From Nannocystales bacterium (lineage in GTDB: Bacteria; Myxococcota_A; Polyangia; Nannocystales; Nannocystaceae), in contig JBOEGF010000006.1 of assembly GCA_050633305.1 (NCBI GenBank), positions 96,001 to 160,000 on the forward strand: a stretch of 64,000 nucleotides of DNA, written 5' to 3'. The notes beneath the pieces are model-generated. The model was not told where the DNA came from. It was given only the letters and a program-made list of their open reading frames with translations, and ran no database searches. Of this stretch, positions 34,665-44,339 are shown in pieces; the stretch's first letter is position 1; each line of letters opens with the position of its first letter. Made by a program: the position numbers and the translations under genes.

Positions 34665-34738
<74 letters not shown>

Positions 34739-34741
34739 CCG

Positions 34742-34775
34742 AAAGAGCGCATTTCCTAGTGCGCTCTTTTTCTTT
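34742..34775 (+). terminator. Intrinsic terminator after tRNA
   Basis: aaagagcgca-tttcctag-tgcgctcttt followed by a T-tract. Confidence 0.85.
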
Positions 34776-34924: not shown

Positions 34925-35347
34925 TCAGGTGGGCGCCGAGAGGCACTCGGGGCAGGTGCCGCGCAGCTGCAGTGTCGCGCCGCGAACGGAACTCGACCAC
35001 GGTCCATCGATCTGGATGGACGTGGTGAGCTCGCGCGGCAGGCAGGCGAGCCGGCCGCAGTCTTCGCAGACGAAGTGCGCGTGCGCGTGCGCTTCTTCGG
35101 ACGCCAGAGCATAGCAATCCGTGCCCTCGACCCGACTGACGATCCGCGCGAGCCCCGACTCCCGCAGCTTGACGAGGTTGCGATAGACGGTCGTGCGTTC
35201 CCAATCCGTCTCGCCGAGGCGCTCGAAGACCTGACGACAGGACAGCGGGTCCTCTGCGCCGGACAGAATGCGCATCACGGCGAGGCGGGGCCCGGTCGCC
35301 CGGAGTCCGCGCGTTCGCAGGCGCTCGCGCGCTTCGCCTCGTGTCAT
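34925..35347 (-). CDS. Fur-family metal-responsive regulator
   Basis: GLRATGPRLAVM, TTVYRNL..L.ESGL, HAHAHFVCEDCG, GTCPEC; start ATG 35347 or a GTG a few codons upstream. Confidence 0.92.
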   Translation of the reverse strand: MTRGEARERLRTRGLRATGPRLAVMRILSGAEDPLSCRQVFERLGETDWERTTVYRNLVKLRESGLARIVSRVEGTDCYALASEEAHAHAHFVCEDCGRLACLPRELTTSIQIDGPWSSSVRGATLQLRGTCPECLSAPT

Positions 35348-35408: not shown

Positions 35409-35963
35409 TCATCCTGCGCACGGGCACGCCGCGCACTCGCGAACACTCGAGACACCGCAGTGTTCCTGCAAACGCGTCGCGAGCACCCGCCGAGCGCGGT
35501 GAAGCCGAACGGTGGCGTTGTTGGTCGAGATGCCGAGCGCTTTCGCGGCTTCGGCCACGGAAGCGTCGCCGAGGTCGACGAGTTGGAGAATCGAGGCGTA
35601 GCTGTCCTTGATGCCCTCGGCGAGCACCAAGCTACAGCCGCAGCCCGGATCGTCAGCGAGGGGCTGCTCCTCGACTCGTTGAAGGTGTGAAGCGACCTTC
35701 AGCGCCCGACGCTCGCTCCCCTGCCTGCGGATGGCATCGGCGATCGCGTTTCGGTGAACACGGAACAACCACGCATCCAAGCGACCCGGGTCGCGTAGGG
35801 TCTCGGCGCGCTCGAGCGCACGAACGGCTGCGGTCTGGAGGACGTCGTCAACCAGACTGCCATCAACCCTGCGAGCGACAAACGCCGCAAGGCTTCTGTG
35901 CAGCCGCCGCAGGCCGCTGGAGACGAGTTCAACGCTCGCCCGAGCTGTCGAGTCCGCTCTCAA
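35409..35963 (-). CDS. ECF sigma factor with CxC linker and Cys-rich C-terminus (CorE/SigZ-like)
   Basis: sigma2 DDVLQ…AWLFRVHRNAIAD; linker GCGC; sigma4 AKALGISTNNATVRLHRARR; tail HCGVSSVRECAACPC. Start reassigned to TTG 35963, 4 nt after the upstream small gene. Confidence 0.88.
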   Translation of the reverse strand: MRADSTARASVELVSSGLRRLHRSLAAFVARRVDGSLVDDVLQTAAVRALERAETLRDPGRLDAWLFRVHRNAIADAIRRQGSERRALKVASHLQRVEEQPLADDPGCGCSLVLAEGIKDSYASILQLVDLGDASVAEAAKALGISTNNATVRLHRARRVLATRLQEHCGVSSVRECAACPCAG

Positions 35964-35967
35964 GGGG

Positions 35968-36129
35968 TCAGCGTTGCTTGGGTGGACAGCCGCAGGTTGG
36001 ACCACATTCGCACGACCCGGCGCAGGTGCAGCGCGGCCCGCAACAGCAGTTGGGCTGCTCGGGTTCTCGACGCTCGCAGGAGCAACGGTTGGTACAGCGG
36101 TCACAAGCACAGATTTGGTTCGGTTTCAT
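35968..36129 (-). CDS. Metallothionein-like protein (53 aa, 14 Cys)
   Basis: Manual translation: MKPNQICACDRCTNRCSCERREPEQPNCCCGPRCTCAGSCECGPTCGCPPKQR*; AGGAG 4 nt upstream of ATG; below the ORF-track length cutoff. Confidence 0.85.
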   Translation of the reverse strand: MKPNQICACDRCTNRCSCERREPEQPNCCCGPRCTCAGSCECGPTCGCPPKQR

Positions 36130-36179
36130 GGGGCTCCTGGCGGTGGCGAACTTGGGTTCTCAGCTCGCTCGTTCAGGCT

Positions 36180-36206
36180 GACGCTCGACCCGTCGCGATT
36201 CTTACA
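36180..36206 (-). promoter_or_regulatory. Putative ECF-type promoter for the MT-ECF-Fur operon
   Basis: Minus strand TGTAAG-N17-CGTC, 50 nt upstream of the MT ATG; CGT in the -10 is a common ECF signature. Confidence 0.55.
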
Positions 36207-36271
36207 GTTCGGGTTCCCTGCCGGCGCCCCGGTGTTGCAAAACGTCGGCATATGACTATAACTTGCAGCAC

Positions 36272-36712
36272 GTGACCGCGCCATCGGCCCCTCGGGTCCC
36301 CCCCCAGCTCGACCGCCTCGGGCTTGTGGCGAGCACCGCATGTGCGCTCCATTGCGCGGCGACAGCTCTGGTCCCGACCGTCCTTGCCCTGCTCGGCGCC
36401 TCCGCCCTGCTCGACCATGAAGCGGAGTGGGTCTTCACGGTCCTGGCGGTCGGTGTCGCCAGCCTTGCGCTCGCCCTCGGGTGGCGCAGGCATGGCGCCA
36501 GCATGGCGACACTGGCACTGAGCCTGGGCATTGTCGGGCTGCTGTGCGCACGGGTGCTCGAGGAGGGTGGGCACGGGCATGGCCTTGGGCTCGCCGTCAG
36601 CCTCTTGTCGGGCGGTGCACTCGTCACGGGGCACATCCTCAACCTCCGGCGAACCCCCGCGGCGGCGCCCGAACCCGAGTCGGCACCTGAGCCGTGCTGC
36701 GTGCCCGAGTGA
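36272..36712 (+). CDS. MerC-family membrane protein
   Basis: LDRLGLVASTACALHCAATAL.P, HEAEW, GWRRHG, LVTGHILNLR; 4 TM; C-terminal PCC. Start GTG 36272 or TTG 36263. Confidence 0.88.
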   Translation: MTAPSAPRVPPQLDRLGLVASTACALHCAATALVPTVLALLGASALLDHEAEWVFTVLAVGVASLALALGWRRHGASMATLALSLGIVGLLCARVLEEGGHGHGLGLAVSLLSGGALVTGHILNLRRTPAAAPEPESAPEPCCVPE

Positions 36713-36840: not shown

Positions 36841-36881
36841 ATATGCAACACAAATCGAGTTGCATATGCCACCTGCTTGCA
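36841..36881 (+). promoter_or_regulatory. Palindromic operator-like region upstream of the His-rich lipoprotein
   Basis: ATATGCAAC-N9-GTTGCATAT (36841-36867), overlapping GCATATG-N7-CTTGCA (36862-36881). Confidence 0.6.
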
Positions 36882-36896
36882 TTAGAGACGTCGATC

Positions 36897-37604
36897 ATGA
36901 ACTGGAAAACGCTTCTGGCCACTTGCCTGATCGCTACGCTCCCGCTCGGCTGTGACTCGGATGGCGACGACGACCACGACGCAGACACGGAGCACCACCA
37001 CGACACCGAGGGTGACAGTGACGAAAGCGAAGGCCACGACACCGAGCACGATCACGGTGAGACGGAGCTGATCACCACGGTCACGCTCACCTTCACGTCG
37101 GACACCGCAGACACGGTCACCGCAGCCTTCAGCGATCCCGACGGCGACGGCGGGATGTCTGGCTCGTCCGACCCCGTTGTGCTCGCCCCGGACACGACCT
37201 ACGCCCTGTCGGTCGAGTTCACGAACGAGCTCGAGCAACCCGCCGAGGACATCACCGAAGAGGTCCGGGAGGAGGCCGAGGAGCACCAGGTCTTCATCTA
37301 CGGCAGCTCGGTCACCGGACCCGCGTCGATGGGAGACGGCCTCCTGACGCATGCCTACACGGACTTGGAGTCCGACTACACCGAGAACACGGTCGGCGAC
37401 GACCTTCCGGTTGGACTGGTCAGCTCGATCACGACCGGCGCCGCCAGCACAGAGACCGGTGAACTCGAGGTCATGCTCCGACACCTTCCCGACGTCAACG
37501 GAAACCCGGTCAAGACCAGTGACCTCAGTGCAGTCCTCGCGGCTGGCGACGCTCTTCCCGGCGATGTCGACGCGAATGTGCACTTCGACGTCACTGTGCA
37601 ATGA
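36897..37604 (+). CDS. His/Asp-rich putative metal-binding lipoprotein
   Basis: ATG 36897; LPLGC lipobox; 7 His in the acidic N-terminal stretch; ELITTVTLTF, DPDGDGG, DITEEV.EEAEEHQ, LRH.P motifs. Confidence 0.85.
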   Translation: MNWKTLLATCLIATLPLGCDSDGDDDHDADTEHHHDTEGDSDESEGHDTEHDHGETELITTVTLTFTSDTADTVTAAFSDPDGDGGMSGSSDPVVLAPDTTYALSVEFTNELEQPAEDITEEVREEAEEHQVFIYGSSVTGPASMGDGLLTHAYTDLESDYTENTVGDDLPVGLVSSITTGAASTETGELEVMLRHLPDVNGNPVKTSDLSAVLAAGDALPGDVDANVHFDVTVQ

Positions 37605-39327: not shown

Positions 39328-40440
39328 GTGAGAGCCTCCCTCGCGCTCCTGCTGCCCTGCGTCCTCTTGTTGCCTGGTTGTAGCGACAGCCGGCGAAACG
39401 TGAAGCGGGCGCCCGGACATCCAGACGTGTTCGCCACGAAGTTGTTCGAGGAAACCCAGATGCTCGCCGCCGAGCAGCTCGACCCCGCCTCGGCGTGCGA
39501 GCGCTGGCAAGGCGCCGCGTGGTGCCAGGCCCTCATCAGCGGCTGGAGCTTCGTCCCCGAGACGCTGGAGGTCTGCGGCGCGGAGGCAGACGAAGCGGCG
39601 GTGACCGATTGCCTCTCCCGCACCGCGAACCGCGAGTTCTCCCCACTGGGGCTGGAAACCTGCGCGGGCCTGCAGACGCCCAAGCACCGCTACACCTGCC
39701 TCAACGCGGTCGCGGATCGCCACTTGGAGACACCGCAGTACCTGTACTGCGCACAAAAGCCATCGAAGAAGGTGGCGGGCTGTCTCGCCGACGCTCACGA
39801 ATACAAATTCCACCCCGACGAACTCCAGCGCATCGTCCAGCGCACGACCGAGGACACGCCAACAACCGACCCTCGCACGCTCATCGGCAACCTCGAGAAC
39901 AACGTGGCCGACGCCTACGCGCTCGACCGGAGCGAGTGGCCCGAGCATTACATCTTCAACTTCGCTGGCGGAGCCACCACCCACATCCGGGCGATGTACT
40001 GCGCGCTGGATGAGTATCTGCTGATCGTCGGCGCGCCGATCAACGTCAATGGGTACTCCGGCCGCTATCCCGCCGAAGTCCACGATTTCGTGTTCACCGG
40101 CCTCATGCATGACTTCGAAGAACACGACTTCGAACAACACGACTTCACCGCCGGTGCGTGGGCCTATCTCCCCCACGGCGGACACCGGGTCTACGCCACA
40201 GAAACCCCGACCTACATGCTGGAGTACGCGCGCGGCTCGGTCCCCGGCATGCTCAACTTCGGGATCCGGCATCCGCGCTACTCGATCACCCGCGACCGCA
40301 AGAACATGAAGCAGCAGGTCCGGATGTGCGCAAGCCGTGCCTTGGCTGCGAACAGGGCCAACCGGAAGCAACGCCGCTCGCTGCGACAAACGAAGCGGAA
40401 GACGATCCGAGAGATCCGCCGGGCCCTTCGCGGTCTGTAG
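39328..40440 (+). CDS. Lipoprotein with Cys-pair repeats and ERG2/sigma-1 receptor-like domain
   Basis: LLLPGC lipobox; YIFNFAGG…EYLLIVGAPI…GYSGRYPAEVHDFVFTG…YMLEYARGSVP.ML.FG matches ERG2/SIGMAR1 motifs in order and spacing. Confidence 0.82.
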   Translation: MRASLALLLPCVLLLPGCSDSRRNVKRAPGHPDVFATKLFEETQMLAAEQLDPASACERWQGAAWCQALISGWSFVPETLEVCGAEADEAAVTDCLSRTANREFSPLGLETCAGLQTPKHRYTCLNAVADRHLETPQYLYCAQKPSKKVAGCLADAHEYKFHPDELQRIVQRTTEDTPTTDPRTLIGNLENNVADAYALDRSEWPEHYIFNFAGGATTHIRAMYCALDEYLLIVGAPINVNGYSGRYPAEVHDFVFTGLMHDFEEHDFEQHDFTAGAWAYLPHGGHRVYATETPTYMLEYARGSVPGMLNFGIRHPRYSITRDRKNMKQQVRMCASRALAANRANRKQRRSLRQTKRKTIREIRRALRGL

Positions 40441-40585: not shown

Positions 40586-41395
40586 ATGGATCTGCTGTCC
40601 GTCGAGAACTTCGCCAACCTGGGCGTGCTGCTGTTTCTGCAAGCCGTACTCGGGTTCGACAACCTCCTGTACATCGCGATCGAGTCTAAACGAGCTCCTG
40701 AGGAACATCAGCAGGCCGTCCGACGCAACGCGATCCTGATCGCGATCGCCCTGCGGGTCGTGCTGCTGTTCGTGATGGTGAGCCTCATCGACCGCTTCGA
40801 AGAGCCGTTCTTCGTCGTGGACAGCGGGCCCATCCATGGGGAATTCAACTTCCTGGTCATCGTGTTCCTGCTTGGCGGGGGATTCCTGATGTACACAGCC
40901 GTCAAGGAGATCGGGCACATGATGTCCATTGAGGACATCAGCGCAGATGTCACCGACGACGGCAAGAAGAAGACGGTGGGTCAGGTCATCTCGATGATCG
41001 TCTTGATGAACCTCATCTTCTCGTTCGATTCGATTCTCTCGGCTCTGGCCATCACCGATGTGTTCCCGGTGCTCGCGTTGGCGATTGTGGGCTCTGGACT
41101 GGCCATGCTGTTCCTCGCAGACCACGTCTCGGAGTTCCTGCGGAAGAACCGCAAGTACGAGGTCCTCGGGTTGTTCATCCTGCTGATCGTCGCCATCGTG
41201 CTTCTCGGCGAAGGAGGCCACACCGCCACGCTGACGCTGTGGGGGCACCACGTCGAGCCGCTCGCCAAGAGTACGTTCTACTTCTCGATCGTCGTCTTGG
41301 TGGTCGTCGACATCATTCAGGGCCGATACCAGAAGAAACTCGCCGCCGAGCGTGCGCAGCAATCCGGGGCCGACAACACAAGCCCCGCGGCATGA
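40586..41395 (+). CDS. TerC-family membrane protein
   Basis: VLGFDNLLYIAI, GGGFLMY.AVKEI, NLIFSFDSILSA; 7 TM. Confidence 0.92.
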   Translation: MDLLSVENFANLGVLLFLQAVLGFDNLLYIAIESKRAPEEHQQAVRRNAILIAIALRVVLLFVMVSLIDRFEEPFFVVDSGPIHGEFNFLVIVFLLGGGFLMYTAVKEIGHMMSIEDISADVTDDGKKKTVGQVISMIVLMNLIFSFDSILSALAITDVFPVLALAIVGSGLAMLFLADHVSEFLRKNRKYEVLGLFILLIVAIVLLGEGGHTATLTLWGHHVEPLAKSTFYFSIVVLVVVDIIQGRYQKKLAAERAQQSGADNTSPAA

Positions 41396-43094: not shown

Positions 43095-44339
43095 TCATCT
43101 CCGTCGTGGTGTTGATCCGTCACCCGCTTGCGCACAAACATCTGCGACCGCCGTCGCGACCGCGGATCCAGGCCGCTGGTTCGAAAGCCGCCGACGCACC
43201 CGCGCCGCCTCGTCGGTGCGGCCCAGAGCACACAGTGCCCGAACGAGTGCTCCTTCTCGGACGTCGACGAGCCGCCCGTCCGCGAACTGAAGTTCGTGCT
43301 GTCGAAGCAGACGCACCGCCTGCTGCGGCTCGTCGCTCCGTAGGGCTCGCTGCGCGCGCGCGAGCAGCCGGGACTCGTCATCGAGGACGGGGCCGGGCTC
43401 AGACTCGGACCCCTCCAGGGGTTCGGGCTCGGGGGCGTCGGCAACGGGAGGCTCGGCAACGGGAGGCTCAGCAACGGGCCCGACCGAGCGCGCCGGCTTG
43501 CGATGCGGCGACTCTGGGAGCGCCGCGACCGGATCGGCAGCGGCGGTCTCCACATGGACCCGGCTGGGGACGGAAGAGACAGCCTCCTGCGGTTCACTCG
43601 AGACGAGGAGCGCAGCCCGTGCCGGGGTTGCCGGGGGTGCAAGCGCCGACCCCCCCGCGGTCGCGAGCACACCGCCAAGCGCACCGCCCAACGCGAACGC
43701 TTTAATCGTGGACACCGCAACCCACGGAGCCTGCGTCCATGGGAGCACCGCTCGAAGGACGCGTTGGCGAACCTCGGCGGACGGAGACTCTCGGGGCTCG
43801 AGCGCATCCTCGAGCTCCCGACGCTTCACGTCGAACGCCGCGATGCGCTGGCGGGCAAGCCTCAGCCGCGAGTAGACGGTGTTGAGCGGCACGCCGAGCG
43901 CGGCGGAAACCTCCGGCGCCGTGAAACCGTGCACGAGCGTGAGCACCAGGACACGGCGCTGCGCATCGGTCAGACTGCGGAGCGCCTCGGCGGCGGTGGT
44001 GACCGCCTCGTAGCGCGTGGAGGCGTCCGCAGGGGCGAGCCGCGGAGCCTCGGCGAAAGCCGCAACGCGCGCGTCGAAGCGCCGCGTGTTTCGACGGAGA
44101 CGCCAGACGACTTTCTTCGCGATCGCGCACAGCCACGCCCGCTCGGATGCGTCGGGGTCCAGGGTGTGCAAACGCCGAACCACGACGATCCAGATCTCCT
44201 GGGCGGCATCTTCCCGAGCAGCGCCATACAGTCCCAGCTGCCCGATAACGGACCATACAAGCCGGAAATGGCTCGAGTACAAGCGGCGGAACTGGGCGGA
44301 TTGGACGCGGGACAACGGAGTCTCCCCTCGGTCAATCAC
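43095..44339 (-). CDS. ECF sigma factor fused to TM + Pro-rich linker + TPR-like C-terminal domain
   Basis: EDAAQEIW, AWLCAIA, EVSAALGVPLNTVYSRLRLAR; hydrophobic AFALGGALGGVLATAGG; ESRLLARAQRAL…H..QF.DG.L…ALCALGR. Confidence 0.85.
   Translation of the reverse strand: MIDRGETPLSRVQSAQFRRLYSSHFRLVWSVIGQLGLYGAAREDAAQEIWIVVVRRLHTLDPDASERAWLCAIAKKVVWRLRRNTRRFDARVAAFAEAPRLAPADASTRYEAVTTAAEALRSLTDAQRRVLVLTLVHGFTAPEVSAALGVPLNTVYSRLRLARQRIAAFDVKRRELEDALEPRESPSAEVRQRVLRAVLPWTQAPWVAVSTIKAFALGGALGGVLATAGGSALAPPATPARAALLVSSEPQEAVSSVPSRVHVETAAADPVAALPESPHRKPARSVGPVAEPPVAEPPVADAPEPEPLEGSESEPGPVLDDESRLLARAQRALRSDEPQQAVRLLRQHELQFADGRLVDVREGALVRALCALGRTDEAARVRRRLSNQRPGSAVATAVADVCAQAGDGSTPRRR
43438..43478. repeat. 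15-bp tandem repeat x2.7 (PVAEP linker)
   Basis: tcggcaacgggaggc x2 + tcagcaacggg. Confidence 0.85.

Follow-up and report, generated by a model that had tools for sequence, protein, structure and literature searches.

The window analysed here, a stretch of 64,000 nucleotides from a Nannocystales bacterium, encodes on its minus strand a 53-amino-acid peptide with 14 cysteines directly in front of a CorE-like ECF sigma factor. We propose that the two genes probably represent a self-contained cassette consisting of a histidine-independent bacterial metallothionein and its own metal-sensing sigma factor. Judged by sequence conservation, the 53-codon open reading frame is a real, conserved and mostly uncalled gene, and a sigma factor gene of this type usually follows it as second member of a two-gene cassette. 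The relevant features are:

35968..36129, minus strand: gene for a 14-Cys metallothionein-like peptide of 53 aa (5-Cys N-terminal part, 9-aa linker, 9-Cys C-terminal part)
36134..36138, minus strand: Shine-Dalgarno sequence AGGAG of the peptide gene, 4 nt upstream of the ATG
35409..35963, minus strand: CorE-like ECF sigma factor of the ECF44/ECF238 type (Pfam PF04542, PF08281), probably starting at a TTG that is coupled to the stop of the peptide gene
35964..36110, minus strand: region upstream of the sigma gene where its frame stays open through the peptide gene; an extension regarded as spurious from frame variation, stop codons and GC3

The peptide gene and its homologues

Translation of the minus strand between 35968 and 36129 (ATG start, TGA stop) yields exactly the peptide that had been described in an earlier note on this DNA, with 53 residues, 14 cysteines and neither His nor Phe, Trp or Tyr. 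The cysteines make up 26% of the residues (family mean 27%), are located at positions 7, 9, 12, 16, 18, 28, 29, 30, 34, 36, 40, 42, 46 and 48 of a 5.8 kDa product, and follow the spacing CxCxxCxxxCxC-x9-CCCxxxCxCxxxCxCxxxCxC. The ribosome binding site AGGAG is indeed present 4 nt before the ATG. After the peptide stop come CCCC and then, in frame with the sigma core, a TTG (35963), as expected from the proposal that the gene ends 4 nt before the sigma start, but this TTG lacks a Shine-Dalgarno sequence of its own and the sigma start is only probable. The host genome (11.0 Mb, 66% GC, 92% complete) contains the full spacing pattern once. Because Cys-rich short frames arise frequently by chance in a GC-rich genome (50 of 367,581 candidate start-ORFs have at least 8 Cys and at least 18% Cys), we used conservation as the test of whether the gene is real. 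Searches of Pfam, NCBIfam and PDB sequences with the peptide gave zero matches, and six family members matched nothing in Pfam at E<=10. An AlphaFold2 model calculated without metal is of low confidence (pLDDT 61.6, pTM 0.32) and uninformative on the fold; neither Foldseek nor VIA-align found a structural match to it.

Homologues came from three sources: 185,579 species genomes (27 loci), a metagenome scan (at least 15 loci, including one false positive and one duplicate) and a profile search over 1.84 billion representatives, whose 16 proteins include an unrelated one. Pooled, these searches gave at least 50 non-identical sequences showing the full pattern, defined as CxC-x2/3-C-x3/4-CxC-x6-12-CCC-x3-CxC-x2/3-CxC-x3-CxC, which bears out the claim of a real, conserved gene for a Cys-rich peptide that, unlike SmtA/BmtA, is essentially independent of His and aromatic residues. 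Among the 50 listed sequences His is absent from 39 and aromatic residues from 47, and where His occurs its positions are scattered. An alignment of 38 genes has 532 cells in its 14 Cys columns, of which 530 hold TGC or TGT (393 and 137, respectively), with both codons in every column; differences at the three codon positions amount to 0.38, 0.34 and 0.57. The homologues begin with ATG, and an SD-like motif lies upstream of 34 of the 38 genes. The aligned peptides contain 27% Cys, are rich in Gly, Pro, Ser, Thr and Ala and have hardly any hydrophobic residues; no signal-peptide-like, leader or hydrophobic segment was found in the alignment. Across the family the number of cysteines ranges from 13 to 16, and identity at non-Cys positions is only 30%, with no conserved surface. 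The 9-aa linker had been characterized as charged; its length is conserved among the homologues, its charge is not. As predicted, the Cys pattern recurs upstream of orthologous sigma genes: in each of the five relatives that have a close orthologue of the sigma factor, the peptide gene immediately precedes it, with 14 of 14 Cys invariant and 42-46% identity.

The hosts belong to Myxococcota, Acidobacteriota, Alphaproteobacteria (Roseibium, Algihabitans, Erythrobacter, Algimonas, Parvularcula) and Actinomycetota (13-Cys form), plus one gammaproteobacterium. The distribution is rare and patchy: the peptide occurs in 6 of 60 relatives and in 3 of 6 other genomes of the same genus, was not found among 400 further genomes sampled in the class of Roseibium, and was seen neither in viral contigs nor in plasmids, the plasmid search being weakened by a low-complexity filter. 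Among the sequencing runs listed, none of RNA was seen to contain the region, and one of DNA covers parts of it in short contigs. The expectation that gene callers miss it is largely true, as all nine DNA-derived sequences tested are missing from a collection of 15 billion proteins, although some homologues have been called and labelled 'hypothetical protein'. In the ESM Atlas, unnamed clusters of 52-76 members score 0.89-0.92 to the peptide. Variants with 16 Cys, two of them additional in the N-terminal part (L004, L033, L049, L055), and 13-Cys variants of Actinomycetota (L052, L057) together provide a natural series for stoichiometry.

Several loci were treated separately. L070 (a false positive, namely the Cys-rich end of a long ORF resembling a protease) and L064 (same contig as L053) were dropped, L061 and L046 are near duplicates of L045 and were omitted from some counts, and L031 and L032 duplicate the contigs of L006 and L002. 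L063, L065 and L059 were left out as partial, the upstream region is cut off in L035 and L066, L069 (different spacing) was counted for the promoter only, and L060, readable for 72 nt downstream, was dropped.

The partner sigma factor and the cassette

The sigma factor is composed of sigma2, a linker with a CxC motif (C108, C110), sigma4 and a C-terminal C-x7-C-x2-C-x-C tail; C108 and C110 are invariant in 24 of 24 aligned sequences. Its top NCBIfam match is SigZ, below cut-off. A CxC linker and a Cys tail are given as hallmarks of the ECF44 clade of ECF238 in the available text of PMC7826278. In other peptide-linked sigma factors the tail is mostly followed by x4-CC, which is absent in the window's genome. 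Twenty-five peptide-linked sigma factors form a clade (support 95/91), to which the window's sigma factor is sister with weaker support (93/57).

The sigma gene lies downstream within about 150 nt at 24 of 27 genome loci, and among 60 relatives the peptide and a close sigma factor (E<1e-45) are found in the identical six genomes and neither in the other 54. Peptide and sigma distances are correlated (rho 0.47, reached in 0 of 2000 permutations, with kin that are not independent), and the flanking genes vary between loci. Starting from the sigma factors, a Cys-rich mini-ORF was found behind the promoter-like motif described below for 10 of the 12 same-tail sigma factors with readable upstream DNA (7 of 12 being members of the peptide family), two of the 12 lacking a peptide; for sigma factors with other tails the figure was 8 of 26, with different Cys spacings. 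In several assemblies of one lineage the peptide and the sigma factor are fused in frame to a protein of 252 aa (P0019-P0021), beside which internally deleted derivatives exist (P0005; L063, L063:3-410); the fusion looks like the loss of a single stop codon.

Peptide genes also occur without a sigma gene (L041, L042, L044, L058, L059, L062, L072). Intact solo genes at six loci are scattered over a weakly resolved tree, corresponding to six changes, which suggests that the peptide is useful without the sigma factor. In the genomes of L041, L042 and L044, which may be incomplete, no sigma factor of the CorE-like clade was found anywhere. Two solo loci (L059, L062) are located near CobW/COG0523 genes, and at L058 and L059 the peptide gene precedes a gene with an XRE-type HTH domain.

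A conserved promoter-like motif

36180..36206, minus strand: predicted ECF promoter with -35 element TGTAA(G) (36206-36202), 18-nt spacer and -10 element CGTC (36183-36180), 50 nt upstream of the ATG

In the DNA alignment of six relatives the upstream blocks TGTAAGA and CGTC are invariant (6 of 6). The motif TGTAA-N17/18-CGTC is present 20-54 nt before the ATG at each of the 32 sigma-linked loci whose upstream DNA spans 150 nt, a count that is partly circular because the motif was first read off the same loci. By comparison, it occurs upstream of 3 of 12,333 long ORFs of the window's genome and at one of six loci without a sigma gene (L072; not at L041, L042, L044, L058 and L062). Support independent of motif discovery comes from the loci L073 and L074, which were found sigma-first, and from a position weight matrix built from 29 other promoters with the window left out, with which the window's site is the best in the genome (28.1 bits). 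Since the next site reaches only 19.5 bits, the predicted regulon in this genome is the peptide operon alone; a wider regulon of the motif was looked for here and none was found. It is thus very likely, from the distribution of the motif, that the peptide promoter is transcribed by the sigma factor of the cassette.

TGTAA/CGTAA-N17/18-CGTC was also seen upstream of ECF44-type sigma genes that lack a Cys-rich ORF (L075, L080, L089, L090, L095), and the TGTAA/CGTC motif may represent a general ECF44 promoter. The available CorE promoter text gives AAC at -35 and G at -10, with which the motif of the window is compatible, short of proof of identity. Where the leader is longer (about 45-50 nt), its 5' end carries a hairpin of unconserved sequence (window 36130-36175; L005, L051, L055, L067).

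Neighbouring genes

34925..35347, minus strand: Fur-family regulator (PF01475), 61 nt after the sigma gene and co-oriented
36263..36712, plus strand: MerC-domain membrane protein (PF03203), divergent neighbour
36866..37604, plus strand: Fur/Zur-like inverted repeat (36866-36882) and gene for a His-rich lipoprotein (36897-37604), local neighbours

In the window the Fur-family gene is possibly co-transcribed with the cassette, but Fur homologues are found near it only at L040, L110 and L111, i.e. they are not a conserved part. A MerC-domain gene adjoins the cassette at four loci (window, L107, L110, L111). A Pfam scan of the 152 nearest ORFs at 40 loci, with long ORFs trimmed, revealed neighbours of the zinc-homeostasis type (ZnuA, ZIP, CobW/COG0523, CDF, Fur, MerC) at 8 loci (window, L037, L040, L059, L062, L107, L110, L111), a figure that has no control set, and none at the other 32 of the 40 among the few nearest ORFs scanned. 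Cu-ATPases, multicopper oxidases and arsenic families are missing from the Pfam hits of these 152 ORFs; the nearest ORFs showed no conserved modifying enzyme or exporter, and redox neighbours (MsrB, GST, OsmC, peroxiredoxin) are scattered.

The His/Asp-rich lipoprotein (36897-37604) belongs to no Pfam family and has a 59% identical paralogue in the same genome (G000 C13:75018-75545). It is preceded by palindromes resembling ATGCAAC-N3-GTTGCAT (window 36843-36885), a Zur-like motif; a weaker copy is located before merC (36234-36268), and others were noticed elsewhere (G000 C18:942862, C18:939838, C8:111310, C43:310982), also before a COG0523-like start. These palindromes possibly mark a Zur regulon. 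This is only a lead, because genome-wide the motif is not over-represented, with 8 sites against 3-35 in four scrambled controls. A tRNA-Met with a terminator-like hairpin behind it (34665-34770) lies at the margin of the metal-gene cluster and is a possible integration site. Genes for a TerC-family membrane protein, an ERG2/sigma-1-receptor-like protein and a second long ECF sigma factor (40586-41395, 39328-40440 and 43095-44339, respectively) are, as far as seen, unrelated to the cassette.

Relation to known metallothioneins

Only SmtA/BmtA-type proteins and MymT have been characterized as bacterial metallothioneins according to the available texts (PMC7387436, PMC10612145). Like SmtA, BmtA, PflQ2 (PF02069) and MymT, the peptide is bacterial, small and Cys-rich and is predicted to be under the control of a metal sensor. 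It differs in that SmtA-type proteins use His and a zinc-finger fold, whereas the peptide has no conserved His or aromatic residue, and in that the regulators of SmtA, BmtA and MymT are, in the texts at hand, SmtB, Zur and RicR, whereas for the peptide an ECF sigma factor is predicted. Zinc-uptake genes near the peptide at some loci recall bmtA of marine Synechococcus, where Zur controls znuABC and bmtA (PMC9337993, as far as available). PF02069 does not match the peptide, nor was a match found in the 92% complete genome; a comparison with MymT by way of Pfam, NCBIfam and PDB gave no match.

The peptide also resembles eukaryotic metallothioneins. Both are small and gene-encoded, with about 27% Cys, runs of CxC-x3-CxC-x3-CxC, two linked Cys clusters and few hydrophobic residues, and the ESM language model gives scores of 0.81-0.86 against clusters of PF02067, PF02068 and PF00131 (Drosophila, plant and vertebrate metallothioneins), a lead only. 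The named proteins compared comprise the mammalian beta-domain Zn3Cys9, the 9-Cys beta domains of molluscs, plant type 2 (14 Cys) and Drosophila family 5. The term 'eukaryote-style' in the earlier note is appropriate for the short [CxC]x3[CxC]x3[CxC] runs, which are shared with mollusc domains, but the 5+9 layout with its CCC motif and 9-aa linker fits no Pfam metallothionein family and none of the mollusc layouts in the available tables of PMC7826182. Plant type 2, in the available account of plant types 1-4 (PMC10603854), has 8+6 Cys and a spacer of about 41 aa. Eukaryotic families (PF00131, PF02067, PF02068 and others) gave no Pfam match to the peptide, and their layouts differ. The likeness is most likely convergent; horizontal transfer from eukaryotes was considered and is unsupported. 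In function the peptide would be a metallothionein, but none of the named families examined includes it.

In the literature, mainly open texts, we found no paper pairing a metallothionein with CorE, ECF44 or ECF238; a prior mention is possible. The word metallothionein is absent from the available parts of the CorE, CorE2, review and ECF-classification texts and from most CorE2 supplements, and the family motif from the DeepMetagenome supplements. A soil-metagenome study of candidate bacterial metallothioneins was reportedly carried out by Li et al. in 2020.

Proposed function

The peptide is highly likely to bind metal, given its density and arrangement of cysteines. It would reside in the cytoplasm and bind several thiophilic metal ions via Cys thiolates only. 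The 9-Cys part might hold a three-metal cluster, because its nine cysteines match mammalian Zn3Cys9, with nine Cys and three metals (PMC10243857, available text), and the 5-Cys part one or two ions. By analogy with CorE and CorE2, metal entering the cell would be bound by the CxC linker and the Cys tail of the sigma factor, which would thereby become active and transcribe from the TGTAA-N18-CGTC promoter the peptide gene, then its own gene and, in the window, perhaps also the Fur-family gene. Owing to its strong Shine-Dalgarno sequence the peptide would be made in excess over the sigma factor with its unaided TTG start. Its thiolate clusters would lower free metal and thus switch the sigma factor off, compensating for the missing equivalent of CorE Cys184; we consider such feedback by metal capture an evenly balanced proposition. 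The cassette would be a horizontally spread two-gene unit operating without an anti-sigma factor.

CorE and CorE2 of Myxococcus xanthus (ECF44, now ECF238) resemble the cassette sigma factor in their sigma2-CxC-sigma4 architecture, in the Cys tail and in lacking an anti-sigma gene. CorE has cysteines at 181, 184, 189, 192, 194 and 206, of which Cys189 is required to activate it and Cys184 to inactivate it, the C184A variant being constitutive without shut-off (PMC3107203, available text); in CorE2 the CxC linker and the Cys tail are essential and Cys174 sets the choice between Cd and Cu (PMC4937300, available text). The tail of the cassette sigma factor is in the CorE 181/189/192/194 register, including the equivalent of the essential Cys189, but lacks equivalents of CorE Cys184 and CorE2 Cys174. 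As both are missing, the published specificity rule is inapplicable. Zinc or cadmium is weakly favoured, at about even chances; copper is unlikely, and a metal other than these three unlikelier still. The predicted target is the cassette's own peptide operon, whereas CorE and CorE2 act on efflux pumps or oxidases. The cassette sigma factors have a conserved, predicted autoregulatory promoter, in contrast to the ECF238 description, whose available text reports that promoter motifs are not conserved (PMC7826278); autoregulation is partial for CorE and absent for CorE2 in the text of PMC4937300 at hand.

A more far-reaching reading is rather doubtful: the peptides would be a third, all-Cys class of bacterial metallothionein serving as off-switch of a sigma factor that lacks its own inactivating Cys, with the same promoter slot convergently filled by unrelated Cys-rich mini-proteins across phyla. 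In such an off-switch, metal would possibly be handed over directly, as hinted by the natural fusion.

Alternative explanations

The order of the two genes, with the peptide directly before the sigma factor, their co-occurrence in six of six genomes, the fusion P0019-P0021, the lack of Cys184 and a predicted regulon that consists of the peptide operon alone would all suit a peptide that is mainly a dedicated regulator, i.e. a soluble anti-sigma factor or metal shuttle binding the sigma factor directly, instead of a bulk metal store. However, intact solo genes at six loci, three of them in (maybe incomplete) genomes without a detected sigma factor, do not fit, and neither does the absence of a conserved surface at non-Cys positions that are 30% identical. 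In addition, the same slot is taken by differently spaced Cys-rich peptides, CorE and CorE2 operate with no anti-sigma factor, and the fusion resembles one lost stop codon accompanied by deleted derivatives (P0005, L063). The repeated solo genes, the low identity and the unrelated peptides in the slot lead us to favour a bulk binder, and we regard the dedicated regulator as improbable. CCC and CxC motifs suit three-coordinate ions. Their presence in the peptide, the proximity of the sigma factor to SigZ models and the scattered redox neighbours (MsrB, GST, OsmC, peroxiredoxin) raise the question whether arsenite, some other soft metalloid or thiol-oxidative stress, and not Zn, Cd or Cu, is what the cassette senses or buffers. 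Arsenic-resistance families are absent from the Pfam hits of the 152 neighbouring ORFs of 40 loci, where zinc-type genes recur, and the CxC linker is a mark of the metal-sensing ECF44 clade and not of ECF24/SigZ, so that this alternative seems hardly more probable than a dedicated regulator.

Small size and an even number of cysteines would also be expected of a disulfide-rich exported peptide, an Fe-S carrier or the precursor of a modified peptide. Against these stand the lack of a leader and of a hydrophobic segment, the lack of a conserved modifying enzyme or exporter nearby, a Cys number that ranges from 13 to 16 and, as a weak point given the low-confidence model, the lack of a fold match, making them very improbable. 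Least credible is that the stretch is no gene at all but the N-terminal extension of a sigma factor starting at GTG 36110. The sigma frame is indeed open over the peptide from this GTG, as noted earlier and confirmed by translation, and it is likewise open at 11 of 32 loci, while the TTG at 35963 lacks a Shine-Dalgarno sequence. Yet, taken against the peptide, the sigma frame is 0 at 7, 1 at 10 and 2 at 15 of 32 loci, and stops close it at 21 of 32, because of which we consider the extension spurious and reject the start at 36110, which the earlier note had named as a refuting case. GC3 is 0.55 in the extension versus 0.74 in the sigma core, conservation sits in the Cys frame, a Shine-Dalgarno sequence precedes ATG 36129, and the peptide ORF is present at loci without any sigma gene.

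Implications and further cysteine-rich mini-genes

If the metallothionein cassette is confirmed, a His-independent 14-Cys family in five phyla-level groups under an ECF sigma factor would offer both a scaffold and a mode of control that are new, and a branch of ECF238 described without conserved promoter or context would gain a predicted promoter and target. The context of this branch was probably overlooked because the intervening mini-gene is seldom called. With less than 0.8 kb the circuit is portable, tractable in a laboratory host and a candidate biosensor part, and it would allow the arrangement of the Cys tail to be tied directly to metal specificity and shut-off. Its ecological weight is probably modest, given the rarity of the cassette (not found among the 400 further genomes from the class of Roseibium).

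Differently spaced Cys-rich mini-ORFs were seen upstream of other CorE-type sigma genes (L069, L077, L081-L084, L092, L099), most of them behind TGTAA/CGTC, and further ones downstream of such genes (L010, L011, L013); the one at L079 encodes 104 aa. As a lead from their sequences, these might represent several further metallothionein-like families.
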